From the sequence record AP019559: a stretch of 64,000 bases of DNA. One strand, written 5' to 3'. The notes below the pieces were generated by a model. It had not been told where the DNA came from. It saw nothing but the letters and a program-made list of their open reading frames with translations, and did not search any database. Every line of letters begins with the position of its first letter. Position 1 is the stretch's first letter. This DNA is from Escherichia phage SP15. Shown piece by piece: positions 18,525 to 58,514 of this stretch. Both the position numbers and the translations under genes were made by a program.

Positions 18525-18815
18525 TTAATCCTCTGGATTATCATCCAGGAAATTTTTAATAGCTTCGTGCATAGTTTCTTTACGAAGCTGACGTCCAATC
18601 AAAATATGATTAGCTTCTATTCGACCATTAGGTAAGCGATCTGCCAGAACTACTACAGGTACTTGACGTACACCAAATTTCTGCATTAATTCTGTATTAT
18701 CAGTCTCTTTATGGATTTCCAAATTATAGTCATTGACTACTTTATCAAATACTGGTTCGAAAAGTTTACATGGGTTACAGGTGGAACCTTTTAATAGATA
18801 GACTAATTTAGACAT
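18525..18815 (-). CDS. thioredoxin-fold redoxin (CxxC)
   Basis: Track ORF 18525..18842 trimmed to the ATG at 18815 (AAGGAAA RBS); 'CNPC' active-site-like motif. Confidence 0.5.
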   Translation of the reverse strand: MSKLVYLLKGSTCNPCKLFEPVFDKVVNDYNLEIHKETDNTELMQKFGVRQVPVVVLADRLPNGRIEANHILIGRQLRKETMHEAIKNFLDDNPED

Positions 18816-19314
18816 TTTTATTTCCTTTGCTGGCAAACTCACCGTGGAGTTCTTCTAGTTTTTCATCTCTCCATGCAATTGCTTCTTCCAAAGAACTGCA
18901 CGTTTTCATATAATTGATTCCTGCTCTAGAGATTTTTACTCTAAAAGACTTCCCTCTTTGAGATATATTTTTTAATCCCAATAGGTTATTTTTATTAGCC
19001 GATTTCCTATTAAAAGCATTTTGAGCTTTTGTAGCTTCTCTTAAGTTACCAATACGATTGTTTAGCGTATTGGTATCATCATGATCTACTATATCAGGTA
19101 AATAGCCTTTGTGCATAAAGAAGATTGCTCTATGCGCAAGTATTCGTTCTCCATCAATAGAGAGCATTAGATAGCCATCAGCATTAATAGACCCAGCAGG
19201 CATATTGTTAAGGCTAGTATTCCAACCTCTTGTACCTTCCGGTCTAGGTTTCCAGGTTAGAGTACCATCTTCGTGGTACTCTAATACCTCTAATAATCTC
19301 TCCCTAGTAATCAC
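18808..19314 (-). CDS. HNH homing endonuclease
   Basis: 'VDHDDTNTLNNRIGNLREATKAQN' HNH core; C-terminal tail shared with the ORF at 23623. Confidence 0.7.
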   Translation of the reverse strand: MITRERLLEVLEYHEDGTLTWKPRPEGTRGWNTSLNNMPAGSINADGYLMLSIDGERILAHRAIFFMHKGYLPDIVDHDDTNTLNNRIGNLREATKAQNAFNRKSANKNNLLGLKNISQRGKSFRVKISRAGINYMKTCSSLEEAIAWRDEKLEELHGEFASKGNKNV

Positions 19315-19739
19315 AATTTATTAATGGCCTCTAAGAAGTTTTTCATAGTTTTTACGGTTGCGGTGCTCAGATCAAGATTTACACCCAAACACTCGGTTAA
19401 TGCTTCCTGATAAGGAGCCTTTAATCTGCCTTCTGGGACTTCTACCTTCTTATACTCTTTATTTTTGACCTTTTTAATCATAGTCTCTAGTACAAGAAGC
19501 GGTAATTTAGCACCTTCAATATCAGTACCCAAAAGTTCAGTTAAAATTTTATTAAGATCAAGACGAGTTAACTTTTTGCCCTTAGACATAGATGCACCTA
19601 CCTTTGTATCAATAGATTTTTCCGCTTTCTTTTCGAGCTTTTTGTACTCAGGAGAGTCATGATCACGGAGTGCAATGTTTAGCTCGTAATGTGGTATACG
19701 AAAATGTTCCGCCATTTGAGTGTAGAAACGATCAGACAT
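19311..19739 (-). CDS. hypothetical protein
   Basis: 142-aa ORF. Confidence 0.5.
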   Translation of the reverse strand: MSDRFYTQMAEHFRIPHYELNIALRDHDSPEYKKLEKKAEKSIDTKVGASMSKGKKLTRLDLNKILTELLGTDIEGAKLPLLVLETMIKKVKNKEYKKVEVPEGRLKAPYQEALTECLGVNLDLSTATVKTMKNFLEAINKL

Positions 19740-19814
19740 AATATATACCTCTCTTAACTAATTTATGTATATATTATATAATAACTAGGGCTAAAAGTCA
19801 ACTACTTTTTTATC

Positions 19815-20231
19815 TTAATCTACTGCATGTATAAATCTTTTCCTAACTAGATACATAGTTATTGGGTAAATTGAGTACATAAGTATCGGGGAGAAAAGGG
19901 TGAAATACGCTGTAACTCCCCCAGCTAACATCAAAGGTATTAATGCTAGAGTAAGGGCCATAAGAATCATACCGAATGAAACAGCCAGAGCTATGGATAT
20001 AGGATTCTCTAGTTCCATCCATAACCAACAATATTTCGTATCTCTATGGCAATTGCATTTACAAACGCCGAATGAACCCATAATTATATACTCTAGTCCG
20101 TGAATAACCTTTATTAATAAGCTATTTCGGGTAGTTAATGCAATGATAGTAAAGACTATCATTAAAACGAATACTACTAGACTTATTTTCCAGATACCTA
20201 GCAGCATCATAGTGAATAGTTCTGCAAACAT
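19815..20231 (-). CDS. multi-pass membrane protein
   Basis: 138 aa with several hydrophobic segments. Confidence 0.45.
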   Translation of the reverse strand: MFAELFTMMLLGIWKISLVVFVLMIVFTIIALTTRNSLLIKVIHGLEYIIMGSFGVCKCNCHRDTKYCWLWMELENPISIALAVSFGMILMALTLALIPLMLAGGVTAYFTLFSPILMYSIYPITMYLVRKRFIHAVD

Positions 20232-20308
20232 GGCTTTCTCCTATCTTCAAAAATTATTAAAGCCCCCTTTGCCTAAAAAGGCGGGAATATTCCCGCCTAA
20301 GTTATTAA

Positions 20309-20722
20309 TTAAACTAGTTCGACATGACCGCCATCATAGGTACCACGTTTTATTTCATCGTGATAGTCTCCCGAAGCATTCCAATCAGCACCAAAACGAA
20401 GTTTAATGCCTAGCTCTTTACCAGCTTGTTCAAAAGCCTTTTTAACTGCCCAAAATGCTTCTAAGTCATTCCAATCAATTTTGCCATTAATATATGGAGC
20501 AAAATCAATAGCATCCCCAGTAATATGTTTGCTTTTACTAGGATCTTTTAGAAATGAAGTACCATTAGCAATGTTCTGGGCACTTTGTGCTACTGTACGA
20601 ATACCTTGCACGATTGTGAAATCATACGGAGATAGTTCTAAAGCCCTACGAGCTACTTTTTGTAGCTCGGGCTTAACGGTAGCTAATTGTTTTTCACTAT
20701 TTTTACCAAATTTAAAACTCAT
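20309..20722 (-). CDS. lys: endolysin, L-alanyl-D-glutamate peptidase (M15-type, EndoT5-like)
   Basis: 137-aa protein; length and sequence match what I recall of the T5 endolysin. Confidence 0.85.
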   Translation of the reverse strand: MSFKFGKNSEKQLATVKPELQKVARRALELSPYDFTIVQGIRTVAQSAQNIANGTSFLKDPSKSKHITGDAIDFAPYINGKIDWNDLEAFWAVKKAFEQAGKELGIKLRFGADWNASGDYHDEIKRGTYDGGHVELV

Positions 20723-21375
20723 ATTGATCTACCTAAAGATCTCTGTTGTGGGGAACAGAGCTTTGCTAAATATTCCTTGAACTGTTCAGAATCAGCTGTA
20801 TCTACCGGATTATCTTTCCAAGCAATACCAATGTACCCAGCATAGATATTTTTTAGATTGAAGTATGGACAAGTGTATATGTAATTAAAAGTAACGTTTT
20901 TAAACGCAGGTATATTTAACCCCATATATTTATTTACTCTTACACTTAAATCCGATGCGTAGTTAAAGCCCTCTAAATGACGTCTGTATAATTCAGACGT
21001 TTTATTTACCGCTTTATCGGCCAAGTCAGCCCTATCTAATTGCGCATTACTTTCCCATGCAATAATATTGGAATAATCATTGATAGCATCTGGTTTATAC
21101 TTGACTACAAAAACAGCATCTGCACCCGTTTGAGAGAAGAGAACCATGCTCTTTTCCCTCGCCACATTAGGGAAGTTATCTATCCTCTGGGTTTGTAAAT
21201 CTTGTAAAACTGCAGACGTGGAAAAAGTCTTTAAGAATGACATCACTTCACTAGTATTACTAACAAATAAGAAAATAATGACAGCAACTAAGATAGTTAG
21301 CAGACGTTTAAGAAGCGATGCTGGATCTTTCGCTTCTTGGAGCAGTACCGTTAATAATTGTAAGAACTTTTCCAA
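20719..21375 (-). CDS. holin-like membrane protein
   Basis: 218 aa with N-terminal transmembrane segment, directly upstream of and 4-nt overlapping the endolysin. Confidence 0.6.
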   Translation of the reverse strand: MEKFLQLLTVLLQEAKDPASLLKRLLTILVAVIIFLFVSNTSEVMSFLKTFSTSAVLQDLQTQRIDNFPNVAREKSMVLFSQTGADAVFVVKYKPDAINDYSNIIAWESNAQLDRADLADKAVNKTSELYRRHLEGFNYASDLSVRVNKYMGLNIPAFKNVTFNYIYTCPYFNLKNIYAGYIGIAWKDNPVDTADSEQFKEYLAKLCSPQQRSLGRSI

Positions 21376-21531
21376 TTGTAACCTCCTCTAACCAGTACCA
21401 TTATACTAATTTTGGAGGAAAATTACAATGTGTTTTTAAAGATCACTTCTGGAGCATAAAATTTTGTCGTTGTCAAGAAGAATTTTAGATAAAAGAAAAG
21501 CCAGGGTCGTTAAACCCTGGCTTAAAATTAC

Positions 21532-22131
21532 TTACTCTTCGTTATGCTCCTCGGATTGAGGTAACTGGGCTTTATTATATTGCTCAGATCGATATTTTGC
21601 CAAGATTTCAATACGCTTATGGATTTCTTTGCTATCTAGATAGATATTTTTGTTGTCTTTTACCATCTCGTCGATTTCGTCTATAGAGAAGAACGGATAG
21701 TAGACATCTAGCATCATATCTTCTACGAACTTGTTGTAAGATTCATAGGCTTTCTTGATTTCTTGACCCTTCTCACAGAATCCGCCAGAGAACGTGTGTC
21801 CCATTAGCGTAGCATGTGGATGTACTACCCATCCATGACAGGATAGGAAAATTGTGCAGTAAGCAGAAGCACTAGGACCAATCAGGTGTCCTATAACTGT
21901 TCCACGGCAATTAGCAATTAAGTTAGATAACTGTGCAGCAGTATCAACATAACCACCAGGGCCATTAATCATCAGATTAATTTCGTCGTCCTCATTTGCT
22001 TGCATAAGTACCATTGATAAATCACGGTATTCATCCGGCGGGCCTAATTCTTCATCAAAGAAAAAGGTATACTCATTAGACTGGCGAATGGAGTGAAACA
22101 GGTTAGTCTTTTCTTCTTTTTTATTAGTCAT
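21532..22131 (-). CDS. ClpP-like serine peptidase family protein
   Basis: 'INGPGGYV' and 'GPSASAY' resemble ClpP motifs. Confidence 0.5.
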   Translation of the reverse strand: MTNKKEEKTNLFHSIRQSNEYTFFFDEELGPPDEYRDLSMVLMQANEDDEINLMINGPGGYVDTAAQLSNLIANCRGTVIGHLIGPSASAYCTIFLSCHGWVVHPHATLMGHTFSGGFCEKGQEIKKAYESYNKFVEDMMLDVYYPFFSIDEIDEMVKDNKNIYLDSKEIHKRIEILAKYRSEQYNKAQLPQSEEHNEE

Positions 22132-22143
22132 AGCGATCCTTGA

Positions 22144-22896
22144 TTATCCAACTAGTGGTTCTAGCTCTAAGTCACAGAAGTTATAAACTTCTAGTTTAAG
22201 GTTATTGATACCATCGAATTTATTAACTAATTCGTGAGTAATATATTTTGCAGGAATACCACTTTCAGATGGATGATCTGATTTAATAGTGAACTTCTGC
22301 TCAGCGGGTACTACATTTACTATCAAAGAATCCATATCTAAATGGTTTGTTTCTCTGAGTAACTCTCCTTCATTGGGGAATCTAACATCTGTTATTACGG
22401 CGACATCTGGGTCGTCTTTAGCGATGGATTGCTCCAGAATTATGAGCCAAATGCGTTCATGTACCAGCTGCCTTCCTAGCTCTGTTCCTACGAGCTGTAA
22501 CATTTTTCTCGGAGAAATAAATAAACTATAAAGTCCGTCTTCTTTATTCTCTGAGATAAGTTGTTGAGGATTAAGATATTTTTCCTCAAAAATCGGCCAA
22601 ACGTACGAGAAGTCTTCAAACTTATTGATACCGTATTTAAACCATACGTCTCTAGCTCGCTCCAATTGAGATTGTGTGACCGTAAACCATTGGTCAATCT
22701 CTTTCCCCCTGCGCTCTCCTAGAAACTCTGGAGTTACACCGAGGATTACGGATGCAAGTTCATAAACGGGCTTAGCAAAACTATAACGACGGGGTAAACA
22801 CGTTGGATACGTGTCATTACACCAATCGATAATTAATTTTGCAACGGTATCTTTTCCCGAACCAGCTTCACCATGTAAACCGACTAATACTGACAT
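22144..22896 (-). CDS. dnk: deoxynucleoside monophosphate kinase
   Basis: P-loop 'GEAGSGKDT' near the N-terminus; 250 aa. Confidence 0.7.
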   Translation of the reverse strand: MSVLVGLHGEAGSGKDTVAKLIIDWCNDTYPTCLPRRYSFAKPVYELASVILGVTPEFLGERRGKEIDQWFTVTQSQLERARDVWFKYGINKFEDFSYVWPIFEEKYLNPQQLISENKEDGLYSLFISPRKMLQLVGTELGRQLVHERIWLIILEQSIAKDDPDVAVITDVRFPNEGELLRETNHLDMDSLIVNVVPAEQKFTIKSDHPSESGIPAKYITHELVNKFDGINNLKLEVYNFCDLELEPLVG

Positions 22897-23249
22897 TAAT
22901 CTTTCCTATTGTTAATTGGTGGATAATATACTAAACAACGTTTTTCTTGCAAATCTTGGCGGTAGAAGCAAACCATACTAGTCAGTCGTGAGATATATGA
23001 ATATTCTGCCTCACGGCATTTTGCCAACATATTCCAATCTTTGTATGGTACAACAACTACTACGCCATCTTCCCCATTTGTAGCTAATTTCTTTTCAAAC
23101 TTAAAGTCAAAGCTACAAGGCTGAAGTCCTTTAGGCCAATCCACATGGGCTTGCTTTAACTCATGTGACGGCTCTGGTACTACCGTTTCTGCACAGCCTG
23201 TGATTGTGATTGCGGCTGCGAGCAGTATTCCAAGTTTCCAGTTAAACAT
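22896..23249 (-). CDS. outer-membrane lipoprotein, o-spanin candidate
   Basis: Signal peptide with lipobox 'ITGC'; start lies inside the upstream gene. Confidence 0.5.
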   Translation of the reverse strand: MFNWKLGILLAAAITITGCAETVVPEPSHELKQAHVDWPKGLQPCSFDFKFEKKLATNGEDGVVVVVPYKDWNMLAKCREAEYSYISRLTSMVCFYRQDLQEKRCLVYYPPINNRKD

Positions 23250-23623
23250 GCTAATCTTTCCTCGAACTCCTTACTCTGCTTTTTAGCAATTAATGTAACC
23301 AATCCAGGCTTTGCAGCTATAATATCTTGGCGACTAAGAGCTTTGTCTAACTGCTTAATCTTTTTGTCTAGATCTGCTTGCGAAATATTATTCATTGTGA
23401 AATACTGATTCATTCTAGTCTCACGAAGTTCGCTTTCAGCTTTCACCTTATTGAGGGAAGTCTCTAGAGAAGAAATCTTTTTAGTAGCCACCGCAAGATC
23501 TCCTGCTAAAGTCTCCACTTTATCTACTAAGTGATAAGCACCGAACCCGATGCCTATCGCTAGACCTGCTCCCAGGATATACATCTTGTTATTCCAAACT
23601 AAGTCTACAAACCATTTCCGCAT
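23180..23623 (-). CDS. i-spanin candidate (type II membrane protein with coiled coil)
   Basis: N-terminal transmembrane helix then long coiled-coil; 3' end overlaps the lipoprotein ORF. Confidence 0.5.
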   Translation of the reverse strand: MRKWFVDLVWNNKMYILGAGLAIGIGFGAYHLVDKVETLAGDLAVATKKISSLETSLNKVKAESELRETRMNQYFTMNNISQADLDKKIKQLDKALSRQDIIAAKPGLVTLIAKKQSKEFEERLACLTGNLEYCSQPQSQSQAVQKR

Positions 23624-24120
23624 TAGCCTGTACTCGCAAACTCACCGTGGAGTTCTTTGAGTTTGGTATCCCGCCATTTTATAGCCTCTTCCAAACTCTT
23701 AAGTGTTTTCGAAACTTGCTTACCATGTTTGGTAATTCTTACTTGGTAAGTCCCATTTGTTTTTCTATGGATATTTTTAACGCCTAAATGGTTATCGCTT
23801 CTTACTTTTTGGTTACAAGCATTATCAGATCTTGTAGCAGGCCTTAGATTCTCAAATCTATCATTAGTTGAGTCTTTGTCCTTGTGATCAACTATTTCAG
23901 GCCATTCTCCAGTATGCCATGCATAGATTAATCTATGTGCCCCTATAGCTATGGAACCATTATATAGTTCAACTACTCTATGCCCTGTACTTTGTCTAGA
24001 TCCTGCTACTGTTCCGGCGAATATCTTATTAAAATGTTCGTCCCCTTCCCTGGGTTTCCAGATAAGATTACCATCTTCTTGGTAATCGAACATTCTTCTT
24101 AGCTCTTCCTTACTGATCAT
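23623..24120 (-). CDS. HNH homing endonuclease
   Basis: 'VDHKDKDSTNDRFENLRPATRSDN'; paralog of the ORF at 18808. Confidence 0.7.
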   Translation of the reverse strand: MISKEELRRMFDYQEDGNLIWKPREGDEHFNKIFAGTVAGSRQSTGHRVVELYNGSIAIGAHRLIYAWHTGEWPEIVDHKDKDSTNDRFENLRPATRSDNACNQKVRSDNHLGVKNIHRKTNGTYQVRITKHGKQVSKTLKSLEEAIKWRDTKLKELHGEFASTG

Positions 24121-24815
24121 CTTTTCATATTCCTAAAAGAAGTAACAGTATCAAATCCATGTGCAGCTAAGCGATCCTTATCGGAAATCGTAATAGTATT
24201 TGGTTCGCCGGTTCCTAACACGCCCCAGATATATTGCTCGATCATCTGGTGCAAACGGTATAAGTTACTTTCAATTTCCTGCCACGGAATACCTGACTGA
24301 TGGAAACGAATGTTAGTCTGAATCACGAAGTTACGAACATCATCGTTATCGTTCTTCTTGATACCTTTCACATATGCAATCGGTACACGCAGTTCGGACA
24401 AGATACGTTCTGCTTTAGGTTTTGCTTCAACGAGCAAATCACGCATTGTTTCACGAACATCTCCGCGACTCTTATCCATTAAGTAAGAGCGAGCATGCAA
24501 TCCCATCTCTTCCATTTTATCGAACATAGTGTCGAGGTTGAACGTTTTGAAGCTAAATGCTGGATGCCAGCAGTACAGCTCGTGTAACCAGTAAACTTCA
24601 CCTGCAACAAATAGTGGGTTTACAAAATATTCGAAATCACCACGGAAAGATAGCGAACCATCACGAAATACCTGACGACTATGCACGATGTTCTTTTCTG
24701 CATCATCAGTTACTTTAACCAGTAGCTCTTCAGTTTTACGCTCCCAAACACGATCTGCATCAAATAAACTGTTCTGCAAATCATATACATCGGCGAATTT
24801 AGAAATGATCCTCAT
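24117..24815 (-). CDS. hypothetical protein
   Basis: 232-aa ORF downstream of an early promoter. Confidence 0.55.
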   Translation of the reverse strand: MRIISKFADVYDLQNSLFDADRVWERKTEELLVKVTDDAEKNIVHSRQVFRDGSLSFRGDFEYFVNPLFVAGEVYWLHELYCWHPAFSFKTFNLDTMFDKMEEMGLHARSYLMDKSRGDVRETMRDLLVEAKPKAERILSELRVPIAYVKGIKKNDNDDVRNFVIQTNIRFHQSGIPWQEIESNLYRLHQMIEQYIWGVLGTGEPNTITISDKDRLAAHGFDTVTSFRNMKR

Positions 24816-24846
24816 ATTTAATCCTCTTGCCTCAATCTATAAACAT

Positions 24847-24874
24847 ATTATACAAAAGTTGGGCATCTAAGCAA
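24847..24874 (-). promoter_or_regulatory. T5-type early promoter
   Basis: Minus strand TTGCTT, 16-nt spacer, TATAAT. Confidence 0.55.
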
Positions 24875-24968
24875 CTAAAATTTTATTATAAAAATAGCCC
24901 AGTCGCAAAAGTGCAGGCTGGGCTTTGTCATTATTTGCTTTTGCTAGTAAGCTGACTTAGTGTCAATC

Positions 24969-25349
24969 TTATGTAATATTAGTTTCTCTAGCTTTGCGTA
25001 GTACCCCTGCATTTCTCCACAATTTGATGTCAGCAACTGTTTCTTTATAAGGAGCTATGGTAAAACCTAGTGGGCCAGCACTAAATAATCCTAAGAACCC
25101 TACAATACGCATGTAGAACAAGCATTCTTTGGCTGTCATATTATTTACTGCTTTTTTCTGCTTTTCATCTTTAAACTTCTGTTCTTGATCACCAATACGT
25201 AGATATTTAACAAACCATTCAGCAGAATGTTCGTCCAAATGTCTAATAATAGCTATCGCATATCCAGCACCGATTAAAAACCAAGTTGCAACAAGAATTA
25301 GTAATATAGTCATATTATCTCCAGTTAGGGCTAGCAGCCACCTCACCAC
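24969..25349 (-). CDS. membrane protein
   Basis: 126 aa, two or three hydrophobic helices. Confidence 0.5.
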   Translation of the reverse strand: MVRWLLALTGDNMTILLILVATWFLIGAGYAIAIIRHLDEHSAEWFVKYLRIGDQEQKFKDEKQKKAVNNMTAKECLFYMRIVGFLGLFSAGPLGFTIAPYKETVADIKLWRNAGVLRKARETNIT

Positions 25350-25423
25350 TTACCGCACTAAGGGGCACGACTCCCTTATCCGTAACAGTTGCAGGTGACG
25401 CAACTCGGTCCTACGCGAGTTCT

Positions 25424-25708
25424 TTAAGTATTCTGCATTTCAGCTTTAAATTTTTTCATATTACGAGTTTTTCTATAAAAGAAAAACACAGATGTTGGGC
25501 CTAGAAGAATATCCACAATAAATATCACAGATCTAGCACATCTGAGTAATGTTTTATCATCAAGAGGTGGCAGATCTAACGGTCGAGTTTTATGTATAAC
25601 GTATAATATTACATCTTTATTCTTAGAAATATAAAGATCATCAACCAAGCTGTAAATAGCAACCACAGATCCAATGACAAACCAAAGAGCAAATGGAGAG
25701 ATAATCAT
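25424..25708 (-). CDS. membrane protein
   Basis: 94 aa. Confidence 0.5.
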   Translation of the reverse strand: MIISPFALWFVIGSVVAIYSLVDDLYISKNKDVILYVIHKTRPLDLPPLDDKTLLRCARSVIFIVDILLGPTSVFFFYRKTRNMKKFKAEMQNT

Positions 25709-26001
25709 TTCAGATCCTTTTCATTAATTAGAATATTAGTAAACAGTGGAGTAACTCCTAGACTCATAGTAGGTCCAAACGTATTCATGGCTACCCATAG
25801 CTGCATAGTGATCATCCCATCTTTAATCTCTGGATCTTTATATTCTTCGATACGTTTCTTGGTAAAAGCAACTATATCTGGATTATTTTTATTTTCCTGA
25901 ATATAGTCATGCCAAAACTGAGTATTCTCACTACGTAGGAATGTTAAAACATCCTTAGTTGCTGGAATCTGCACTGTGCTGTTGATGTTTAGTCTTTTCA
26001 C
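25705..26001 (-). CDS. hypothetical protein
   Basis: 98 aa. Confidence 0.5.
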   Translation of the reverse strand: MKRLNINSTVQIPATKDVLTFLRSENTQFWHDYIQENKNNPDIVAFTKKRIEEYKDPEIKDGMITMQLWVAMNTFGPTMSLGVTPLFTNILINEKDLK

Positions 26002-26374
26002 GTTCTTCTCTCCGACGTTTGCGTTCTTTTATCATATGAGCTGCTACAACTTCATGGTAGTAGTCATTAATGTTATCTTCTGGCAAGAAATGCTTAATAG
26101 TCTCTAGCTGACAAATAACTCGATGAAGATGGTTATTTGGTAGACACAATTTTATACCTGCAACAAATCCAGAGAAGCCTGGAACACTGAACATGGGTTG
26201 GGCTTCTACTCTACCTTCAGAGTTGATATTAAGCTCAATTGAGATACCCATTTTCACGCTATAAAGCTGGCAATATTCTCCGTTACCAGACCTTGACCAA
26301 ACAGTGAAGTCCTCATCAATTTGATCTTGAATTTCTGTAATAGCAAATTTAATTCTAGGATCTAAATTATTCAT
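25955..26374 (-). CDS. hypothetical protein
   Basis: Track ORF 25955..26398; internal ATG at 26374 reduces overlap; start uncertain. Confidence 0.45.
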   Translation of the reverse strand: MNNLDPRIKFAITEIQDQIDEDFTVWSRSGNGEYCQLYSVKMGISIELNINSEGRVEAQPMFSVPGFSGFVAGIKLCLPNNHLHRVICQLETIKHFLPEDNINDYYHEVVAAHMIKERKRRREEREKTKHQQHSADSSN

Positions 26375-26666
26375 CTTCACCTTCAAAGTCGCAATCATAA
26401 CGACAAGTAAAAGAATCAGAACTATTAGTACGTTGAGTGGTTATTTCACCGCGTTTGCTAATAGTAACGGCTGGAGTAGAGAAGTTTTTATTAGTATATA
26501 TTTCTACTTTACCATTACGTTCCTTAACATCACGCACTTTACCATACTCGGTAATAATGCCGTTCTGTTGGACTTTAACATTACCATTTTTCATAGAAAC
26601 TTTGGTAGATGCCAGAGAACCGAAACTAACTGTGGAGATCATCAGTGCAATAATAAACTTATTCAT
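26367..26666 (-). CDS. secreted protein with signal peptide
   Basis: Track ORF 26367..26732 trimmed to MNKFIIAL... (GGAGG upstream); cleavable signal-like N-terminus. Confidence 0.45.
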   Translation of the reverse strand: MNKFIIALMISTVSFGSLASTKVSMKNGNVKVQQNGIITEYGKVRDVKERNGKVEIYTNKNFSTPAVTISKRGEITTQRTNSSDSFTCRYDCDFEGEDE

Positions 26667-26940
26667 CTTCATCCTCCCCACTACAATCACGACATACATC
26701 ATAATCGTTGAAAGAACGTTCGTGAGCTTCACACCACCAAGAACAAGAATCGCAGAGAAACATTTCGGTTTTCTCTAGTGCTTGACCTAAAAGATCATCA
26801 GCTTCCTCAGCAGTAATCTTCAATCCGCACACATCTGCCACACGTTCTTTAATTAAACGACCTGCTTCGTGATAAGACATACAGGTTCCCACAACATCAT
26901 GTTCAAGAACATGAACAGCACAGTCTAGACGAGTTTTCAT
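26659..26940 (-). CDS. Cys-rich acidic protein
   Basis: 93 aa with CxxC-like pairs and acidic tail. Confidence 0.5.
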   Translation of the reverse strand: MKTRLDCAVHVLEHDVVGTCMSYHEAGRLIKERVADVCGLKITAEEADDLLGQALEKTEMFLCDSCSWWCEAHERSFNDYDVCRDCSGEDEDE

Positions 26941-26970
26941 TTCAAACCTCTCTCATCAATTTATAAATAT

Positions 26971-26999
26971 ATTATAGCAAGAAAAGAGAGGTTTAGCAA
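26971..26999 (-). promoter_or_regulatory. T5-type early promoter
   Basis: Minus strand TTGCTA, 17 nt, TATAAT. Confidence 0.6.
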
Positions 27000-27016
27000 A
27001 TGAATTATTTCAGAAT

Positions 27017-27800: not shown

Positions 27801-27881
27801 ACATTTCTCCTAAAACTTGGGAGATAAACGGAGTTTGCTCGACTACCTTGCGTAGCTGGGAGAAATCATATCCAAACCCCA

Positions 27882-38354: not shown

Positions 38355-38390
38355 AGCCCCTAGTCGAAAGACTTAGGGGCTTTTCTGTAT
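38355..38390 (+). terminator. Rho-independent terminator
   Basis: 11-bp stem with one bulge around a GAAA loop, followed by TTTTCTGTATTT. Confidence 0.65.
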
Positions 38391-38394
38391 TTAA

Positions 38395-38436
38395 GATAAA
38401 AGAAAAGCCCTGCGCTCTCCAGGGAACGCAGGGCTT
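38395..38436 (-). terminator. Rho-independent terminator for the SPFH gene
   Basis: 10-bp stem AAGCCCTGCG/CGCAGGGCTT; on the minus strand followed by TTTTCTTTT. Confidence 0.65.
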
Positions 38437-51235: not shown

Positions 51236-51377
51236 TTGGCTTTCCTTTTTATAGTTATCAGGATTTAAGGAATATTTTACTTTATTATCGGTCATTAGGC
51301 AAATAAAATTTTCTGATAGAAAAGGCCCGAGTATTTTCATACCCAGGCCCTGTATATTACCAGTCTAGCTTTTTAGC

Positions 51378-51599
51378 TTATTCAATTACTTTAGCTCTAG
51401 CTACTTCTTTTAATAGAATATCTATGGAGGTGCTCAGCTCGTTATAATTGAATGGTTTATTTGGATTTGAGGTTACAATTTTCCACGCTAGGGTTGTCTT
51501 AGGACTTTCTTCCCCTTCCTTACGTGTAATCATATTAGCAGCACTCAGTGAAGTACGATGTATTTTAGTTTTACGGCTCAGATGAACGACGTTTCCCAT
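51378..51599 (-). CDS. hypothetical small protein
   Basis: Track ORF 51378..51650 trimmed to the ATG at 51599, directly after the phoH stop. Confidence 0.4.
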   Translation of the reverse strand: MGNVVHLSRKTKIHRTSLSAANMITRKEGEESPKTTLAWKIVTSNPNKPFNYNELSTSIDILLKEVARAKVIE

Positions 51600-51600
51600 A

Positions 51601-52362
51601 TTACACCTTCCCCATGTCTTTAAAGATGTCATAGAATGCTTTAGACTCAACAGAACGAACGTTATCCATCAATTCGATCATTGAGAATGGGGCATTTTCG
51701 TATTTCTCATAGACTTCCATAAGGAGTGCTAGACCTGAGTCACCTTTAATGTCTTTCTGAGCTATATCTCCGCAGATAATTAAACGGCAGTCTTGTCCTA
51801 CACGAGTTAGGAGACAAATCATTGCCTCAACGGAAATATTCTGAGCTTCATCGACAATTACATAGGAGTTGTTGAAAGTTCTGCCACGAGCATGTTCGAT
51901 AGCCAAAAATTTAATTTTCTGACGTTCGACATATCCCTTATAGGCATGTTCGCCGATGGCCCATTTCATACCATCAGCTATTGGCTCCAACCAAGGCTCT
52001 AGCTTTTCTGCTAGATCACCAGGAAGCATACCAAGAGACTTACCTAGAGGTTCATTAGGACGTACGAGGATCACTTGCTCAATATCTGAGTGAATGTCTA
52101 CGAGTTCCTGAGCTGCAAGAACGGACGGAATAAAGGTTTTACCAGTACCTGGCTCACCGATACCCACAGTCACTGTGTTGTTCTTGATCATATTGATATA
52201 TGATTTTTGCTCGCGGTTTTTACCTACTAGGGATTTAGCAACTGGGTTAGCGTAATCATTAGAAAAATCAGCCTGAATTACGTTATTCTCATACTTGTTG
52301 CCACGCTTTCTTGAACCATTGCGGTTCTCTCTTTTTTGACGTGCTTTTCCCATAAATAACAC
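51601..52362 (-). CDS. phoH: PhoH-like ATPase
   Basis: Walker A 'GEPGTGKT' and PhoH-like length. Confidence 0.8.
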   Translation of the reverse strand: MLFMGKARQKRENRNGSRKRGNKYENNVIQADFSNDYANPVAKSLVGKNREQKSYINMIKNNTVTVGIGEPGTGKTFIPSVLAAQELVDIHSDIEQVILVRPNEPLGKSLGMLPGDLAEKLEPWLEPIADGMKWAIGEHAYKGYVERQKIKFLAIEHARGRTFNNSYVIVDEAQNISVEAMICLLTRVGQDCRLIICGDIAQKDIKGDSGLALLMEVYEKYENAPFSMIELMDNVRSVESKAFYDIFKDMGKV

Positions 52363-52647
52363 TCCTATAGTGTACTTCGCTAACAGAGGATCAACAAAAA
52401 GATCTTGTTTATCAACTTACAAATATATTATACCAATATATACAGTAAAAAGCAACTACAATTTTAAATAAGCCTATGATATTGCATTTAAATAAAAAAT
52501 TTGCTTGCTTTTAACGTGAGATGTGTGATACTAGATAATCATTTTATATCGCGTGCACGAGTGCGTGATTATACAATTTTTAATAGAGATTGGCAAATAA
52601 AATTTTTTGACTCAGATCATGTTACAGAACTTTATAGTAAAATATTG

Positions 52648-52676
52648 TTGACATCCGCCCTCGAATGAGTTATAAT
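52648..52676 (+). promoter_or_regulatory. consensus sigma70-type promoter driving nrdD
   Basis: TTGACA, 17-nt spacer, TATAAT; AAGGAG RBS before the ATG at 52706. Confidence 0.75.
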
Positions 52677-52705
52677 AGTAGTCTTAGTTAGAGAAGGAGA
52701 GTATA

Positions 52706-54580
52706 ATGAATCGCAATGAAGAACTGAAGTATAAAGAAATGCAGGCGTTAATTAGAAACTGCAAAGAGATTATCGAAGGGTCAGCAGATGAAGAGCTGCT
52801 GTTTAATAATGCCAATAAACCCTCAGAACGTTTCCCTACACAAAGGGATATGCTTGCAGGTGAGTTGAGTAAGTATCTAATTCTAGAAGAAATGCCAATT
52901 CAGATTCGAAATGCTCATATGATTGGGGATATTCATTTCCATGATGCTGATTATGCTGCATTAGGCATGACTAACTGTTGCCTGGTAGCTCTGGAAGATA
53001 TGTTGAAGAATGGTATGAAGGTTGGTAATGCTGAAATTAGCACTCCAAACTCTATCACTACTGCGGCGGCTATCACTGCTCAGATTATCACTCAAGTTAG
53101 CTCCCATCAGTATGGCGGTACTTCTGTAGATCGCCTTGATGAAGTATTAGCCCCTTATGTTCGTAAATCCTATGACAAAAATCATGCGTTTGCAAAACGT
53201 TGGACTAAGGATGAAGCCAAAGCATCCGTAATGGCTACGGAGATGACTGAAAAAGAAGTCTATGATGCTTGTCAGGGTCTAGAGTATGAAATCAATACGA
53301 TGTTCAACTCTAATGGTCAGAGTCCGTTTATTACCTTTGGCTTTGGTCTGGGAACTTCTTGGGAGGCACGTCTAGTACAGAAAGCAATACTGAAAGTACG
53401 TATGGATGGTTTAGGTATCAATAAACGTACAGCTATCTTCCCGAAACTGGTATTTGTGCTTCGTGATGGCGTAAATATGAAACCAGGAGATGTTAATTAT
53501 GACATCAAGAAGTTAGCTATGAAATGTACTGCTGAACGTATGTATCCAGATTATATCAGCTATGACAAAGTTGTAGAAGTTACTGGAGACTACAAAGTTT
53601 CTATGGGCTGCCGTTCATTCCTAGCTGCTACAGAAGATGGTGAAACTGCCGGTCGTAATAACTTAGGTGTTGTTTCTGTAAACTTGCCTAGAATTGCTAT
53701 CGAAGCTGAAGGAAATATTGACCTATTCTTTGATTTGCTTGAGCTACGTGTGGATACAGCGTTAAAAGCATTGGAGTGGAGAGTTGATCGCTTAAAATAC
53801 ATTCAAGCTAAAGCTGCGCCCATCCTCTATATGTCAGGAGCCTTTGGACTGCGCTTGGAGCCTGATGAATATGTATTCGATCATTTCTATAACCGTGCTT
53901 CTGTATCTCTAGGGTATATTGGTTGCCATGAAATGCTACAGTTCATGTTTGGCAAAGATGTAGACACAATGTCCGAGACCTGCATCAAGTTTGTTCAGCG
54001 TGTATTGCAGTACATGCGGGATAGAGTAGATCAGAAGAAGGAAGAAACTAAGTTAGGTTATAGCCTGTATGCTACACCATCAGAGTCCCTGTGTGACCGT
54101 TTTTGTCGTCTAGACCGTGAATATTTCCCGGAGCATGAAGATATTCTGTCCAAAGGATACTACACTAACTCTCACCACCTTGATGTGGAACGTAAAGTTG
54201 CTCCTAACGTCAAATTTGATTATGAGTCTAACTTTACTCCTATTGCTTCTGGTGGGTGCATCTCCTATGTAGAATTACCGGATATGAAACGATTCCCAGA
54301 TGCACTGGAATGGGTTATTAATTATGCTGCTAGTAAGGTTCATTACTTCGGTATTAATACTCCAGTGGATTCTTGTGGTAAATGTGGATTCTTAGGTGAA
54401 ACAATAGCATCCGAAGATGGATTTAAGTGCCCTATCTGTGGTAATCATGACCCCGAAACTCTTGAAGTAACTCGCCGAGTTTGTGGGTATCTTGGAAATC
54501 CAGGTGCTCGTCCATTTAACCCCGGCAAACAGCACGAGGTGATGGGTAGAGTTAAGCATCAGGATATTCGAGCTAAGTAA
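52706..54580 (+). CDS. nrdD: anaerobic ribonucleoside-triphosphate reductase
   Basis: C-terminal 'CxxC...C' zinc ribbon and glycyl-radical motif 'RVCGYLGNPGARPFN'. Confidence 0.85.
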   Translation: MNRNEELKYKEMQALIRNCKEIIEGSADEELLFNNANKPSERFPTQRDMLAGELSKYLILEEMPIQIRNAHMIGDIHFHDADYAALGMTNCCLVALEDMLKNGMKVGNAEISTPNSITTAAAITAQIITQVSSHQYGGTSVDRLDEVLAPYVRKSYDKNHAFAKRWTKDEAKASVMATEMTEKEVYDACQGLEYEINTMFNSNGQSPFITFGFGLGTSWEARLVQKAILKVRMDGLGINKRTAIFPKLVFVLRDGVNMKPGDVNYDIKKLAMKCTAERMYPDYISYDKVVEVTGDYKVSMGCRSFLAATEDGETAGRNNLGVVSVNLPRIAIEAEGNIDLFFDLLELRVDTALKALEWRVDRLKYIQAKAAPILYMSGAFGLRLEPDEYVFDHFYNRASVSLGYIGCHEMLQFMFGKDVDTMSETCIKFVQRVLQYMRDRVDQKKEETKLGYSLYATPSESLCDRFCRLDREYFPEHEDILSKGYYTNSHHLDVERKVAPNVKFDYESNFTPIASGGCISYVELPDMKRFPDALEWVINYAASKVHYFGINTPVDSCGKCGFLGETIASEDGFKCPICGNHDPETLEVTRRVCGYLGNPGARPFNPGKQHEVMGRVKHQDIRAK

Positions 54581-54587
54581 GATAATC

Positions 54588-54625
54588 AGCCGGGTTGCTA
54601 GTCGACCTGGCTTTTATTTTATTTG
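54588..54625 (+). terminator. Rho-independent terminator after nrdD
   Basis: 8-bp stem AGCCGGGT/ACCTGGCT then TTTTATTTTATTT; abuts the next promoter. Confidence 0.55.
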
Positions 54626-54651
54626 CTTTCAGCCAAAAATTTATATATAAT
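54623..54651 (+). promoter_or_regulatory. T5 early promoter, P_N26-like
   Basis: TTGCTT, 17 nt, TATAAT, then ATAAATTTGAGAGGAG; near-duplicate of the 62066 promoter. Confidence 0.7.
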
Positions 54652-54679
54652 AGATTTATAAATTTGAGAGGAGAAAGAT

Positions 54680-55060
54680 ATGGAATTAAAGCCCTATATA
54701 GTTGAGTCTACGTGTGGTAGTTTCCATCTGGGCGTGGATGATATTGCTGAAGCTGTCTTTGCTGCCACAGGTGATTACTCGCATATAGAGGGTGTTGCAT
54801 ACCCTACCATTATTGGCGATTGGGTGGGAACAAATCTAGATGTATCGCCTTATAACCCATATTGCTTGTTTGATGAAGACAGAGATGAAGTAAAATGTAA
54901 TCTTGAATTTGTGTATAATAGAGTGTTAAAAGTATACCAACGTAGCCCCAATGGATACGAAGATATTACTTGGAGTATTAAACAGTATCTTAAAGATGTA
55001 TACTCTAGTTTTTCTGACGAAGACCTAGAAACAGTTGCAGTGGAGTTTAATAATGACTAA
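54680..55060 (+). CDS. hypothetical acidic protein
   Basis: 126 aa, first gene after the promoter. Confidence 0.5.
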   Translation: MELKPYIVESTCGSFHLGVDDIAEAVFAATGDYSHIEGVAYPTIIGDWVGTNLDVSPYNPYCLFDEDRDEVKCNLEFVYNRVLKVYQRSPNGYEDITWSIKQYLKDVYSSFSDEDLETVAVEFNND

Positions 55061-55259
55061 GAATGTAAAACATCTTAAATATCGCTTAATTTATAACGGA
55101 CGTATGGAAACAGAAGATCTGGCCCAGTTAGCTATTAATTCTAATGAGGTTACAGTGCGTGCGCTGGCAATTGAAAAGTTGCGTGCCTCTTATGAAAATC
55201 GTGTTATGGAACTAGAGGAGAAACTTTATGGCATTCTCGAAGCCGATGCTACCAGATAA
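55053..55259 (+). CDS. hypothetical protein
   Basis: Track ORF 55035..55259 trimmed to the ATG at 55053. Confidence 0.45.
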   Translation: MTKNVKHLKYRLIYNGRMETEDLAQLAINSNEVTVRALAIEKLRASYENRVMELEEKLYGILEADATR

Positions 55260-55449
55260 GGGTTTAAACGCCGCTTTGGAAAACGCATTAATGCAGCACT
55301 GGGAAACTGGCTATAAGGATGGTGTTGAATCCTGCGCTACTATGCTAGAAGTTATTGCTAATACCTTAATGGAGAAAGGCAATAAAGAATTAGCTGAGCT
55401 ATTAGACAGTATTGGGCAAAACTTCAGAGAACAGGTGAAAAATGCGTAG
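55228..55449 (+). CDS. hypothetical protein
   Basis: 73 aa; start may be the internal ATG at 55246. Confidence 0.45.
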   Translation: MAFSKPMLPDKGLNAALENALMQHWETGYKDGVESCATMLEVIANTLMEKGNKELAELLDSIGQNFREQVKNA

Positions 55450-56260
55450 ATTAATTATTATTAGCGGTGCAGGTTTGAGTGTTGAAAGTGGTGTACGAGC
55501 TTTTCGTACTGATACTGCTAGTGGTAAAGCATTGTGGGATGATTATGATCTAGAAGAAGTATGTAATATTCATGCCTTTCGTGGTAATTTTTATCATAAA
55601 ACCCATATGTTTTACAACAAGCGTCGTGAAGAGCTAAAAACTGTTGAACCTAATCTTGCTCATTTGCGTATTGGTGAGTGGTATAAACAATATCCAGGTC
55701 AAGTAGTAAACTTGACTACCAACGTTGATGACCTTATTGAGCGTGCTGGCGTTCCACATAGTGACATTCTGCACATTCATGGGTACTTAAAAGAGGTTGT
55801 TGTGGCTGATAGTCACAATAGTAGTAATAAACGAGTTATTGATGTAGGATACAATTCTATTGATCCAGATGACTATAAATGGGTTAAACCTAATGTAATC
55901 TTCTTTGGGGAGCATGCTCCAGCATATGCAGAAATGTACAATATTTTTGATGGTATTACCAATCAAGATATGATCATTGTGGTTGGTTGCTCTAACCAAG
56001 TAATTAACTTCTACTGGGAATTATTTCCTATTCTTAACCGTACTGCTGCCAAGCTAATGGTAGTTAACTACTATGATAGTGCCCTAGCGGCAGAACCAGG
56101 CTATCAAGGTATGACTCGTAGTGAGATGTACCAGCTGGAAGAACGCGGTATCCCTTACTGGAGTAAAGGGGCTGTAGATGCCTTCAGTGATCCTGATTTT
56201 ATTGCTCGTGTAGAAGCTCATCTAGAGGGTAGACCTTATGTGTCAGGAAGTAAGAAATAA
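55442..56260 (+). CDS. Sir2-family NAD-dependent deacetylase / ADP-ribosyltransferase-like protein
   Basis: 'ISGAGLSVESGVRAFR' (GAGxSxxxG...FR), 'TTNVDDLIERAG', 'HIHG' Sir2 blocks. Confidence 0.7.
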   Translation: MRRLIIISGAGLSVESGVRAFRTDTASGKALWDDYDLEEVCNIHAFRGNFYHKTHMFYNKRREELKTVEPNLAHLRIGEWYKQYPGQVVNLTTNVDDLIERAGVPHSDILHIHGYLKEVVVADSHNSSNKRVIDVGYNSIDPDDYKWVKPNVIFFGEHAPAYAEMYNIFDGITNQDMIIVVGCSNQVINFYWELFPILNRTAAKLMVVNYYDSALAAEPGYQGMTRSEMYQLEERGIPYWSKGAVDAFSDPDFIARVEAHLEGRPYVSGSKK

Positions 56261-56423
56261 TGAATGGGATATTTTCATAACTGAGTCTGGTACTTGGTGC
56301 TATAGATTTGCCTATAGGTTTCCTAGTGTAAGAAAACGGCTGGGGTACACATATAAAATTATCTACACTACAGATAATATATGGTTGTCCTCTGGAGATG
56401 AGGGGAAACAGATATGTCCATAG
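56238..56423 (+). CDS. hypothetical small protein, paralog pair member
   Basis: 61 aa; shares 'DIF..G.WCYR' with the next ORF. Confidence 0.4.
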   Translation: MCQEVRNNEWDIFITESGTWCYRFAYRFPSVRKRLGYTYKIIYTTDNIWLSSGDEGKQICP

Positions 56424-56596
56424 TTAAATCTGTGTATACACATCCCGATGATATATTTGTATGGGCGGATGGTAGTTGGTGCTATCGATGTGAGCTATGG
56501 GAAATGGACTATAAATCTGATGACTATGGTGTCATATATGTTGATACGGTTGAGTATGATACGTTCTTAGAAAGGGACAAAAATGGAAATAAGTAA
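56414..56596 (+). CDS. hypothetical small protein, paralog pair member
   Basis: 60 aa; 'DDIFVWADGSWCYRCELW'. Confidence 0.4.
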   Translation: MSIVKSVYTHPDDIFVWADGSWCYRCELWEMDYKSDDYGVIYVDTVEYDTFLERDKNGNK

Positions 56597-57089
56597 TACT
56601 CCAATTATTTTTCTAGACATTGATGGGGTGCTTAATTCGAGCATCTCCCACCATCATGCACCTGATGATGAAAAGATTTTCTTTGGAAGTGACTGGGTTT
56701 TTAAGCCACTTCTCAAGGCTTTTCAGGACTTTATTCGTCCTTCTCCAATAATGATTGTTGGGGTATCTTCATGGTTCTCTGTCAGGAATGAGATGGAGAA
56801 CGTTCAGATTATGACCGGATTAGATCTTATCGATCGTTTTCTTGGTACAACGGATTTTACTGGTGGTGGGCTATCTAGGGGTAATTCTGTTCTTCGCTTC
56901 GTTGAAAAGCATAAGCTCAAACATTGGTGTGTGCTGGATGACGCTGGTGCTATGATGTATCAGTATCCAACTGTTATAGTCAATGGTAGAATTGGAATAA
57001 ATCTTCAAGATTTAAGAGCTGTTAGCTATATGTTAGAATTTAGTCCAGATCTTGAAATGTGTAAAGCCCTACAACAATTTAAGGTGTAA
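56583..57089 (+). CDS. HAD-superfamily hydrolase
   Basis: Motif I 'IIFLDIDGVLN'. Confidence 0.55.
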   Translation: MEISNTPIIFLDIDGVLNSSISHHHAPDDEKIFFGSDWVFKPLLKAFQDFIRPSPIMIVGVSSWFSVRNEMENVQIMTGLDLIDRFLGTTDFTGGGLSRGNSVLRFVEKHKLKHWCVLDDAGAMMYQYPTVIVNGRIGINLQDLRAVSYMLEFSPDLEMCKALQQFKV

Positions 57090-57091
57090 AT

Positions 57092-57520
57092 ATGTTCAAT
57101 AATGTGTTCTCTAAAGAAGCTAACCCAATATTAGTTAATTTTTGGCGTACTCTTCCAGCCAACCTGTACAATGAGGCTATTAATGCTCTGAAAATATGGT
57201 GTGAGAATAATGAAATCTCCTTTGCTTTTAAAGGCGAGGTTGAAGAGGCTCCCTGTATTGGTTTAATTGTGCAGGTGGAGGATGGTCTTGAAGAGATTGT
57301 CGGCTGGAAAGAGTTGGATGAAATGGGCTTGGTTTTTGCGTTAAACTATAAGCTGTTTATGCCCAATAAACACCGTATTGTTGTTAACTATAAAACCAAT
57401 GAATCTCCTGGTTTTCAAGTTAATGAACGGTATGGTTGGTCTTACTCACCGGAAGAGGTAAATGATGGTATCCAGAAACTTCGTCGTTTTGGTTATCAAA
57501 TTCCGGGTTTAACTGCCTAA
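57092..57520 (+). CDS. hypothetical protein, tandem paralog A
   Basis: 142 aa; shares 'PCIG', 'MGL.ALN..LF.P', 'IPGL' with the next ORF. Confidence 0.5.
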   Translation: MFNNVFSKEANPILVNFWRTLPANLYNEAINALKIWCENNEISFAFKGEVEEAPCIGLIVQVEDGLEEIVGWKELDEMGLVFALNYKLFMPNKHRIVVNYKTNESPGFQVNERYGWSYSPEEVNDGIQKLRRFGYQIPGLTA

Positions 57521-57529
57521 GGAGGCACA

Positions 57530-57922
57530 ATGGAACAAGTATATTGGCGTCAGATCGACCCTAGTTTGGTGAAGCGTGCAGAGAAGCTGCTACAACGTTG
57601 GTTGGGGGTAAGACAAGCCTCCTTCACTTTTCCGGAGCAGCAAATAGACGATCCCTGTATTGGTGTTTTCCTATCAGGCTACGCTAGGGAATGGGAATTG
57701 GATTGGAATGAATTGTCTGCTATGGGTTTAATTGTTGCACTAAATTTCTCTTTGTTCCATCCACGTGGTTTGGCCATATGTCGTGTGCCTGAGGACGGTT
57801 GTTCGCCCCATCTTTTACAGGTGGAAGATGATATTTGGGAGTACACTCCAGATATTCTCAAAGAAGCCAAAGAACAATTAAACCGTGTTGGAATTTATAT
57901 TCCAGGCCTGAATGATGAATGA
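57530..57922 (+). CDS. hypothetical protein, tandem paralog B
   Basis: 130 aa; same motif set. Confidence 0.5.
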   Translation: MEQVYWRQIDPSLVKRAEKLLQRWLGVRQASFTFPEQQIDDPCIGVFLSGYAREWELDWNELSAMGLIVALNFSLFHPRGLAICRVPEDGCSPHLLQVEDDIWEYTPDILKEAKEQLNRVGIYIPGLNDE

Positions 57923-58061
57923 TTTTTATTGGTTGACCTCTATAATCCGGGCTATTAGTGCTCGGATTATTGCCTAATCTTTCCAGCTAATTGACAGCAT
58001 GAATAAATTGTCATTGACAAATTGAATAGATTATGTAATAATATGTGTATTGGAGGTAAAG

Positions 58062-58514
58062 ATGTCGCTCACACAACAAGAACTTTTAGATAATTTCCGA
58101 TATGAAGATGGAAAATTATTTAGAACCACAGGAAGAAATGCAGGCAAGGAATGTTGTGTTTCAACGGGAAATGGGTATTATCGTATTTCTCTAGGTAGTA
58201 AAACTATGCTCCGACACAGAGCCATCTTCTTAATGCATCATGGTTATCTCCCTGATTTAGTAGATCATGAGAATACTATAAAAGGTGATGATCGTATTGA
58301 AAATCTTAGAGAGCAGACAGTATCCGGTAATCTAAGAAATATCAAATATAAGAAAGGAATGCATGTTTACCCTTCTGGTAGTAAGAACTGGCAAGTAGTA
58401 TTTACTATTAACCGTAAACGTATAGTTAAAGGAACATATGACAACTATGAGGTTGCATGTTCTATGGCCAAGATGTTTAGAGGTCAATTATACGGTAGGG
58501 AATCAATCCAGTAA
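58062..58514 (+). CDS. HNH homing endonuclease
   Basis: Track ORF starts at a TTG at 58050; ATG at 58062 has GGAGGT upstream; 'VDHENTIKGDDRIENLRE'. Confidence 0.65.
   Translation: MSLTQQELLDNFRYEDGKLFRTTGRNAGKECCVSTGNGYYRISLGSKTMLRHRAIFLMHHGYLPDLVDHENTIKGDDRIENLREQTVSGNLRNIKYKKGMHVYPSGSKNWQVVFTINRKRIVKGTYDNYEVACSMAKMFRGQLYGRESIQ

Follow-up and report, generated by a model that had tools for sequence, protein, structure and literature searches.

Three open reading frames (ORFs) of Escherichia phage SP15 (sequence record AP019559) are very probably free-standing homing endonuclease genes of the HNH_3-AP2 family that move by homing in mixed infection. They lie in a stretch of 64,000 nucleotides (nt) that was analysed as a whole and is referred to as the window. 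The dmp gene at 124-858 has the same position as in T5, which places the beginning of the window at the left genome end, and by its sequence the window corresponds to the first 64 kb of a T5-like phage with the pre-early and early regions. A search with the 9 kb around the first two of the genes matched 460 phage records, nearly all of them T5-like (Demerecviridae, Markadamsvirinae), with Salmonella phage vB_Sen_I1 as the best match at 96.9% identity and T5 at 94.4%. The three genes were named HNH1, HNH2, and HNH3:

18808 to 19314, minus strand: HNH1, 168 amino acids, GTG start; a free-standing HNH_3-AP2 endonuclease gene (Pfam HNH_3, E 2e-13, 50.2 bits)
23623 to 24120, minus strand: HNH2, 165 amino acids; orthologue of T5 hegF (Pfam HNH_3, E 6.5e-13, 48.5 bits)
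58062 to 58514, plus strand: HNH3, 150 amino acids; of the AKFV33 orf111 type (Pfam HNH_3, E 1.2e-10, 41.3 bits)

All three had been called as HNH ORFs in a first-pass annotation made from the letters of the window, and all three were recovered here with scores above the curated cut-off of 24.8 bits for Pfam HNH_3 (PF13392). The start of HNH3 was placed at the ATG at 58062, which is preceded by GGAGG at 58052-58056, instead of at the TTG at 58050, where the ORF list begins. The family phrog_99, described as HNH endonuclease, matches each protein from end to end (E 2.3e-52 for HNH1 and 1.3e-41 for HNH3). HNH1 and HNH2 are 45-46% identical (tblastn E 1e-39), and HNH3 is more distant, with 29-34% identity (tblastn E 1e-15 against HNH1 and 3e-9 against HNH2). 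By these similarities the three proteins are clearly paralogues.

Each of the genes is at least 99% identical to phage genes that are already annotated in public records, and they belong to a well-described family; in this respect they were already known. HNH2 corresponds to T5 hegF ("H-N-H-endonuclease F-TflVI", T5.046, YP_006874.1), with 99.6% nucleotide identity, a length of 498 nt in both phages and the same neighbours, so that there is essentially no difference between the two. HNH1 is 99.6% identical to an annotated HNH gene of HASG4 and 98.4% identical to one of HMD-P4, with others matching as well. HNH3 shares 99.4% of its nucleotides with an HNH gene of Salmonella phage 8sent1748 and 93.1% with orf111 of Escherichia phage AKFV33, a "putative homing endonuclease", from neither of which it differs in substance; the two genes occupy the same intergenic site as HNH3, and further phages also match. 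A 2012 article (PMC3326045) had already treated the AKFV33 gene as a divergent homing endonuclease.

The N-terminal part of the proteins was compared with I-HmuI of Bacillus phage SPO1. The nuclease core VDHxD...NLR...N is common to I-HmuI and the window proteins at an identity of about 20%, and the VDHxD...NLR...N..N motif of the three proteins aligns with I-HmuI without gaps. The D, the H, the N-L-R and the two downstream N are invariant across HNH1, HNH2, and HNH3, and in an alignment of 42 homologues D78, H79, N91, and N103 (HNH2 numbering) as well as the N-L-R are invariant. In I-HmuI, the conserved D-H corresponds to D74/H75, the N of NLR to N87 and the distal N to N96, residues for which roles were reportedly described by Shen et al. 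in 2004. A profile of the 42 sequences matches I-HmuI (1u3e) with an E-value of 1.7e-8 over positions 41-114; with a single sequence as the query, phmmer against the Protein Data Bank gave a weak I-HmuI match (E 0.097) amid spurious matches to antibody light chains. AlphaFold2 models of HNH2 and HNH3 had predicted local distance difference test values of 95.8 and 90.8, respectively, and for both models the top Foldseek match was 1u3e with a probability of 1.00, at E-values of only about 2e-3 because the domains are small. In these models both proteins adopt the predicted beta-beta-alpha-metal fold.

The C-terminal part of HNH1 and HNH2 had been singled out in the first-pass annotation as a near-identical block shared by the two proteins. 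The near-identity was confirmed: 20 of 24 residues are identical, and outside the block the figure is 54 of 138 (39%). The block is however not special to these two: its motif, ELHGEF, is found family-wide, with L-H-G-E at least 90% conserved and an alanine of the preceding helix invariant in the alignment of 42 family members, and HNH3 carries a version of ELHGEFA that reads QLYGRES. A database search with HNH2 returned 80 homologues, mostly full-length; about one third of those listed bear a precomputed PF00847 (AP2) domain beside HNH_3. Positions ~107-160 of the 42-sequence profile matched the AP2/ERF domains of WRI1 (E 3.9e-9), TEM1 (7.5e-7), ERF096 (2.3e-4), and AtERF1 (1.7e-3), all of them plant DNA-binding domains, over the C-terminal ~55 residues. 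As single sequences, HNH1, HNH2, and HNH3 gave no match to Pfam AP2 at E<0.1, and the domain is recognised by the family profile and the fold only.

The model of HNH2 ends in strands 117-119, 125-131, and 134-140 followed by a helix at 143-161, and that of HNH3 in strands 100-105, 109-116, and 119-126 followed by a helix at 129-144. The second-best fold match of both models was the AP2 domain of TEM1 with a probability of 1.00 and a root-mean-square deviation of 2.7 Å for HNH2 (60 columns) and 4.3 Å for HNH3, where it should be considered that AP2-bearing homologues were among the input alignments of the models. HNH2 and HNH3 are thus modelled with an AP2-like, three-stranded antiparallel sheet packed on a C-terminal helix. 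Because of the profile and fold matches and the family-wide motif, the shared tail is identified as the helix of an AP2 DNA-binding domain, that is, part of a recognition domain common to the family and present in diverged form in HNH3. A tail unique to HNH1 and HNH2 was therefore rejected as an explanation, as the motif is family-wide and HNH3 shares the fold. A recent exchange of the tail between the two genes was rejected as well: the codon is the same for 11 of the 20 identical residues of the block and for 26 of the 54 found elsewhere, and this equal synonymous divergence indicates that the likeness stems from selection at the protein level. For annotators, the conserved ELHGEFA tail indicates an AP2 DNA-binding domain.

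Taken as a whole, HNH1, HNH2, and HNH3 consist of an I-HmuI-like His-Me finger nuclease and an AP2-type DNA-binding domain, and they belong to the HNH_3-AP2 family. The same two-domain architecture is found in the HNH-AP2 homing endonucleases of phages and bacteria (His-Me finger group 2, PMC5714182), which are related to the plant AP2/ERF DNA-binding domains; that article, with reference to Magnani 2004 and Wessler 2005, regards the combination of HNH_3 with AP2 as a typical feature of homing endonucleases. I-HmuI itself is encoded inside a group I intron and has another C-terminal DNA-binding region, whereas the window genes are free-standing and encode an AP2 domain.

The distribution of the genes among T5-like phages is patchy. 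Full-length HNH1 was found in 15 records, full-length HNH2 in 52, and HNH3 in 41 of ~453 at a coverage of at least 80% (any match in 50), which puts the frequency of each at about 3-11% of T5-like records, the denominator being the ~453-460 records that match the flanks, with GenBank/RefSeq duplicates included. The HNH1 protein matched 15 records at an identity of at least 95%, and the next ones were below 60%; with relatives of any degree in 1192 phage records, the family as such is very common. T5 is without HNH1 and HNH3, phiLLS is without HNH1 and HNH2, HASG4 contains HNH1 but not HNH2, and CitS1 contains HNH2 only. Among T5-like contigs of IMG/VR the three genes assort independently, and no contig contains all three. 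Carriers are classified in both Tequintavirus and Epseptimavirus. In the carriers the ORFs are intact, with identities of 94-99.8%, and the genes are more alike than the DNA around them: hegF is 99.6-99.8% identical in T5, VEc33, and H8, with 94.0-95.6% for the surrounding 9 kb; HNH1 is 99.6% identical to its counterpart in HASG4, with 95.1% for the flanks; and HNH3 is 99.4% identical to that of 8sent1748, with 95.5% for the flanks.

All three genes are located between genes conserved across T5-like phages; the first-pass annotation had placed them between conserved early genes. The genes on either side are undamaged; they abut the endonuclease ORFs or overlap with them, and in empty-site genomes they are direct neighbours. 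Such empty sites, which the first-pass annotation had suggested looking for in relatives, exist at all three positions and are clean, with no gene remnants. On these alignments the three genes are free-standing, lie outside introns and inteins, and do not disrupt their neighbours, and their presence in close relatives is sporadic, varies independently among the three sites and appears to be independent of the phylogeny of the flanks. Homing-type mobility, also put forward in the first-pass annotation, is thereby supported by empty sites, sporadic presence, stronger conservation of gene than of flank, and the linked flank blocks described below. Neither of the two findings that the same annotation had named as speaking against mobility was obtained: the catalytic residues D-H...N...N are intact, and the presence of the genes, in about 3-11% of records, is far from invariant. 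In line with this, PMC10644984 names homing endonuclease genes as the principal cause of difference among T5-like genomes. The following features adjoin the three insertion sites:

18756 to 18815, minus strand: first 20 codons of the thioredoxin gene, a diverged block linked to the presence of HNH1; candidate target and immunity region
24135 to 24250, minus strand: 3' end of the T5.047 homologue, a diverged block linked to the presence of hegF; candidate target and immunity region
23582 to 23623, minus strand: first 14 codons of the i-spanin gene, in which carriers and non-carriers of hegF differ; part of the inserted or replaced segment
57927 to 58560, plus strand: HNH3 cassette, ~620 nt in place of ~130 nt of intergenic DNA
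58014 to 58042, plus strand: promoter-like site upstream of HNH3 (TTGACA, 17 nt, TG-AATAAT), 11/12 in a consensus scan; putative function
58523 to 58552, plus strand: promoter-like site at the right end of the cassette, 10/12 in a consensus scan; putative function

HNH1 overlaps both of its neighbours, which are the T5.038 homologue and the thioredoxin gene, a homologue of T5.037. Its GTG overlaps the upstream TGA (GTGA), and at the other end there is an 8-nt overlap of its stop with the thioredoxin ATG (ATGTCTAA); in T5, T5.038 and the thioredoxin gene overlap each other directly, also by 8 nt. The site is empty in T5, phiLLS, and CitS1 and is filled by HNH1 in HMD-P4 and HASG4. When the initial 60 nt of the thioredoxin gene were compared with the window, 2 positions differed in three HNH1 carriers and 6-15 positions in 18 empty-site genomes; the ~100 nt preceding this block showed no association with the presence of HNH1. 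Compared with T5, codons 1-25 of the thioredoxin gene contain 13 nucleotide differences and one amino acid change, and the remaining 71 codons contain 5 nucleotide differences. The same site holds distantly related HNH-AP2 genes for 177-180 amino acids in phage H8 (L034) and in the contigs L016 and L041, and the presence of different HNH-AP2 members at one site requires independent invasions. In a fourth T5-like genome, the contig L044, only an open frame of 118 amino acids was found there, apparently truncated, which suggests decay. By this comparison the junction between thioredoxin and T5.038 is a hotspot for different HNH-AP2 members, a modest addition to what was known.

The neighbours of HNH2 are the T5.047 homologue, which it overlaps upstream (ATGA), and the i-spanin gene, whose start it meets downstream (TAATG). 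The first 14 codons of the i-spanin gene are MRKWFVDLVWNNKMY in the window and MIKNFISSLWQGKWY at the empty site of HASG4; phiLLS has a third start, overlapping the upstream gene, and at the empty site the i-spanin gene starts at or inside the end of the upstream gene. Over the 116 nt of the T5.047 homologue beside hegF, the differences from the window number 1-7 in seven other carriers and 9-34 in 17 non-carriers, a complete separation (Mann-Whitney U = 0), and the next 115 nt showed no association with the presence of hegF. Compared with phiLLS, the last 50 codons of the T5.047 homologue contain 38 nucleotide and 9 amino acid changes, and the preceding 100 codons contain 10 nucleotide changes and no amino acid change. 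Flank polymorphisms tied to the presence of the gene, most of them synonymous, would be the signature of co-conversion or immunity at sites 1 and 2, although this evidence is indirect. In the middle of the same T5.047 homologue, the segment 24300-24700 is only 50-64% identical to that of HASG4 (L005), with adjoining segments at 83-99%; it has the appearance of a sharply bounded divergent allele within a conserved gene and seems to recur in other contigs.

At the third site the HNH3 cassette of ~620 nt replaces ~130 nt, containing a terminator and a promoter, between the T5.107 homologue and the replication-origin-binding gene. The alignment comprised the window, 8sent1748, AKFV33, SHSML-45, and one metagenomic contig as carriers and about 20 empty-site genomes. 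At its left edge, the AKFV33-type and the window-type alleles of the cassette show a slight difference. The promoter-like site 20 nt upstream of HNH3 is the best in the region with 11 of 12 matches, in a scan whose total of hits was no higher than that in shuffled sequence. At the right end of the cassette, the promoter-like site is aligned to the -10 region (TATAATATT) found in empty-site genomes, and it presumably substitutes for the promoter that precedes their replication-origin-binding gene. A hairpin AATCCGGGC...GCTCGGATT at ~57946-57970, upstream of HNH3, was not called as a terminator by a consensus scan, and no claim is made for it.

Two further observations concern the surroundings of this site. 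Two T5-like contigs of IMG/VR (L056 and L063) have an extra ~170 nt right after the stop of the T5.107 homologue, that is, a different insertion at the HNH3 site. Further downstream, the non-coding segment 58660-58990 upstream of the replication-origin-binding gene is present in an allele common to the window, 8sent1748, CitS1, and APCEc03, with which the T5 allele barely aligns.

From these data we propose the following course of homing. When a carrier and another T5-like phage infect the same cell, the carrier's enzyme would recognise a site that is long and degenerate and lies at the insertion point, or next to it, in the allele without the gene. For HNH1, this target would consist of the first ~20 codons of the thioredoxin gene; HNH2 (hegF) would act on the last ~40 codons of the T5.047 homologue, and HNH3 on the intergenic stretch with terminator and promoter before the replication-origin-binding gene. 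The enzyme, presumably an active nuclease, would nick or cut the gene-less allele there; I-HmuI and I-BasI nick one strand (PMC3017599), and by analogy a nick and a double-strand break are equally likely. Repair by recombination with the carrier genome would then copy the endonuclease gene together with a short flanking tract, and the many, mostly synonymous substitutions in the flank of the carrier should give it immunity. The genes would on this account be mobile at present.

A comparable lifestyle is known from the seg and mob genes of T4-type phages such as SegB and MobE, which like the window genes are small, wedged between conserved genes and patchy in occurrence, and which have their target in a neighbouring gene and cause co-conversion of flanking markers (PMC2330249, PMC2790892, PMC2988022). 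SegB is a GIY-YIG and MobE an HNH enzyme, and it is their lifestyle that is likened to that of the window genes. Cleavage and homing were demonstrated experimentally for the T4-type genes, whereas they are inferred for the window genes.

Several points weigh against homing by all three genes as proposed. At the positions aligned to the two N of the DNN of I-HmuI, HNH3 has Asp at both; the first is Asn in HNH1, HNH2, and I-HmuI, and the second is Asn in HNH1 and I-HmuI and Asp in HNH2. The linkage of hegF to its flank is not absolute, given that the IMG/VR contig L012 is without hegF and yet has a carrier-like flank with 9 differences (most other empty-site genomes have 23-34), which could be due to precise loss of the gene or to an empty site resistant to cleavage. 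The flank blocks at sites 1 and 2 could also be hitch-hiking DNA of the donor lineage that contains no recognition site. The genomes compared are related and partly duplicated across collections, and the counts and Mann-Whitney values given above do not represent independent samples. The promoters at site 3 are consensus matches only. Finally, no published biochemistry of F-TflVI/hegF was found in the searchable literature; the characterised enzymes that PMC10644984 and PMC2330249 cite, with reference to Akulenko et al. 2004, are F-TflI, II, and IV only.

The patchiness could alternatively reflect ancestral genes that are being lost by deletion and mosaic recombination, with proteins that may be inactive or immobile. 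T5-like genomes are indeed strongly mosaic throughout, and the HNH gene of L044 at the HNH1 site looks truncated. This is nevertheless unlikely, considering that the ORFs are intact and well conserved (94-99.8%) across carriers with their catalytic residues preserved, that gene and short adjacent tract are more alike between carriers than the surrounding DNA, that the empty sites hold no remnants, and that different family members at the same site require independent gains. The first-pass annotation had also considered site-specific nicking, and one or more of the HNH proteins might have a defined, non-mobile role as the maker of the single-strand interruptions in T5 virion DNA. To our knowledge, virion nicks of the T5 type are a trait of the whole T5 group. 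Full-length HNH1, HNH2, and HNH3 were found in only 15, 52, and 41 of ~455 T5-like records, and if the nicks are group-wide, genes present in about 3-11% of records cannot supply the genome-nicking enzyme. Moreover, T5 has nicks yet lacks HNH1 and HNH3, the three genes assort independently, and the annotated nick motif showed no link to the HNH insertion sites. This role is therefore hardly credible, even though HNH enzymes of the I-HmuI type are natural nickases (PMC3017599), specific nicks are documented for the virion DNA of T5 and BF23 (PMC10644984), and the T5 record annotates nick sites in the region, with the motif CCCTGCGCTCTCC conserved in the window near 22714. As a step in homing, by analogy with I-HmuI, nicking is plausible. 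The identity of the T5 nicking enzyme was not found in the searchable literature. As regards the nick sites themselves, two "major single-chain interruption" sites of T5 share CCCTGCGCTCTCC; the region of the first, at ~22700-22730 in the dnk gene, is 98.7% identical over 300 nt in the window, and that of the second, at ~38377-38411 of the window, is 87.5% identical.

It is also very improbable that the endonucleases are kept mainly for the benefit of the carrier, through marker exclusion of relatives or as a stimulus to recombination or replication. Free-standing endonucleases of T4-type phages are documented to have effects of this kind (PMC2330249, PMC2988022), PMC12639943 cites a report of nuclease genes located where genetic exchange between phages has its boundaries, and in the window the linkage between gene and flank breaks down within ~60-120 nt. 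A benefit overlaps mechanistically with homing and does not exclude it; the low frequency of the genes, about 3-11% of records, argues against a strong general one, and a 2026 preprint describes the role of the nine HNH enzymes of T5 in infection as unclear (bioRxiv 10.64898/2026.04.02.716235). A narrower version has a somewhat better, if still small, chance of being right: one of the genes, most plausibly hegF as the commonest, may have been co-opted for the exclusion of competitors or for setting recombination boundaries beside the lysis and replication modules. Homing in mixed infection remains the preferred explanation for all three genes.

The remainder of the window was surveyed for related genes. 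In tblastn searches with HNH1, HNH2, HNH3 and T5 hegA, hegC, hegD, hegE, hegG, hegH, and hegI no further endonuclease gene was detected, in a survey that is not exhaustive and did not include hegB, and Pfam scans of 20 other window ORFs revealed no additional nuclease. The seven T5 genes queried, out of nine heg genes in T5, are accordingly without a tblastn counterpart in the window. At 5248-5656 the window contains ~400 nt of unmatched sequence and no hegG, where T5 has hegG, a putative HNH endonuclease reported to be toxic when expressed in E. coli, in a pre-early segment of ~860 nt. At 25955-26732 the window contains two ORFs of 147 and 121 amino acids, for which neither a Pfam match nor similarity to hegE was found; the corresponding place in T5, between T5.050 and T5.052, is occupied by hegE.

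The set of selfish endonuclease genes in this phage, T5 hegF plus two that T5 lacks, means little beyond bookkeeping. The more useful, though modest, addition is a concrete prediction of target sites for three HNH-AP2 enzymes, namely the diverged blocks for HNH1 and HNH2 and the replaced intergenic stretch for HNH3, and enzymes of this type are of occasional interest as rare-cutting nickases. Should one of the genes have been co-opted as considered above, the synonymous blocks in the thioredoxin gene and the T5.047 homologue would be the record of an arms race in which target sites escape, and the recognition sequences of the enzymes would be readable directly from the genomes.

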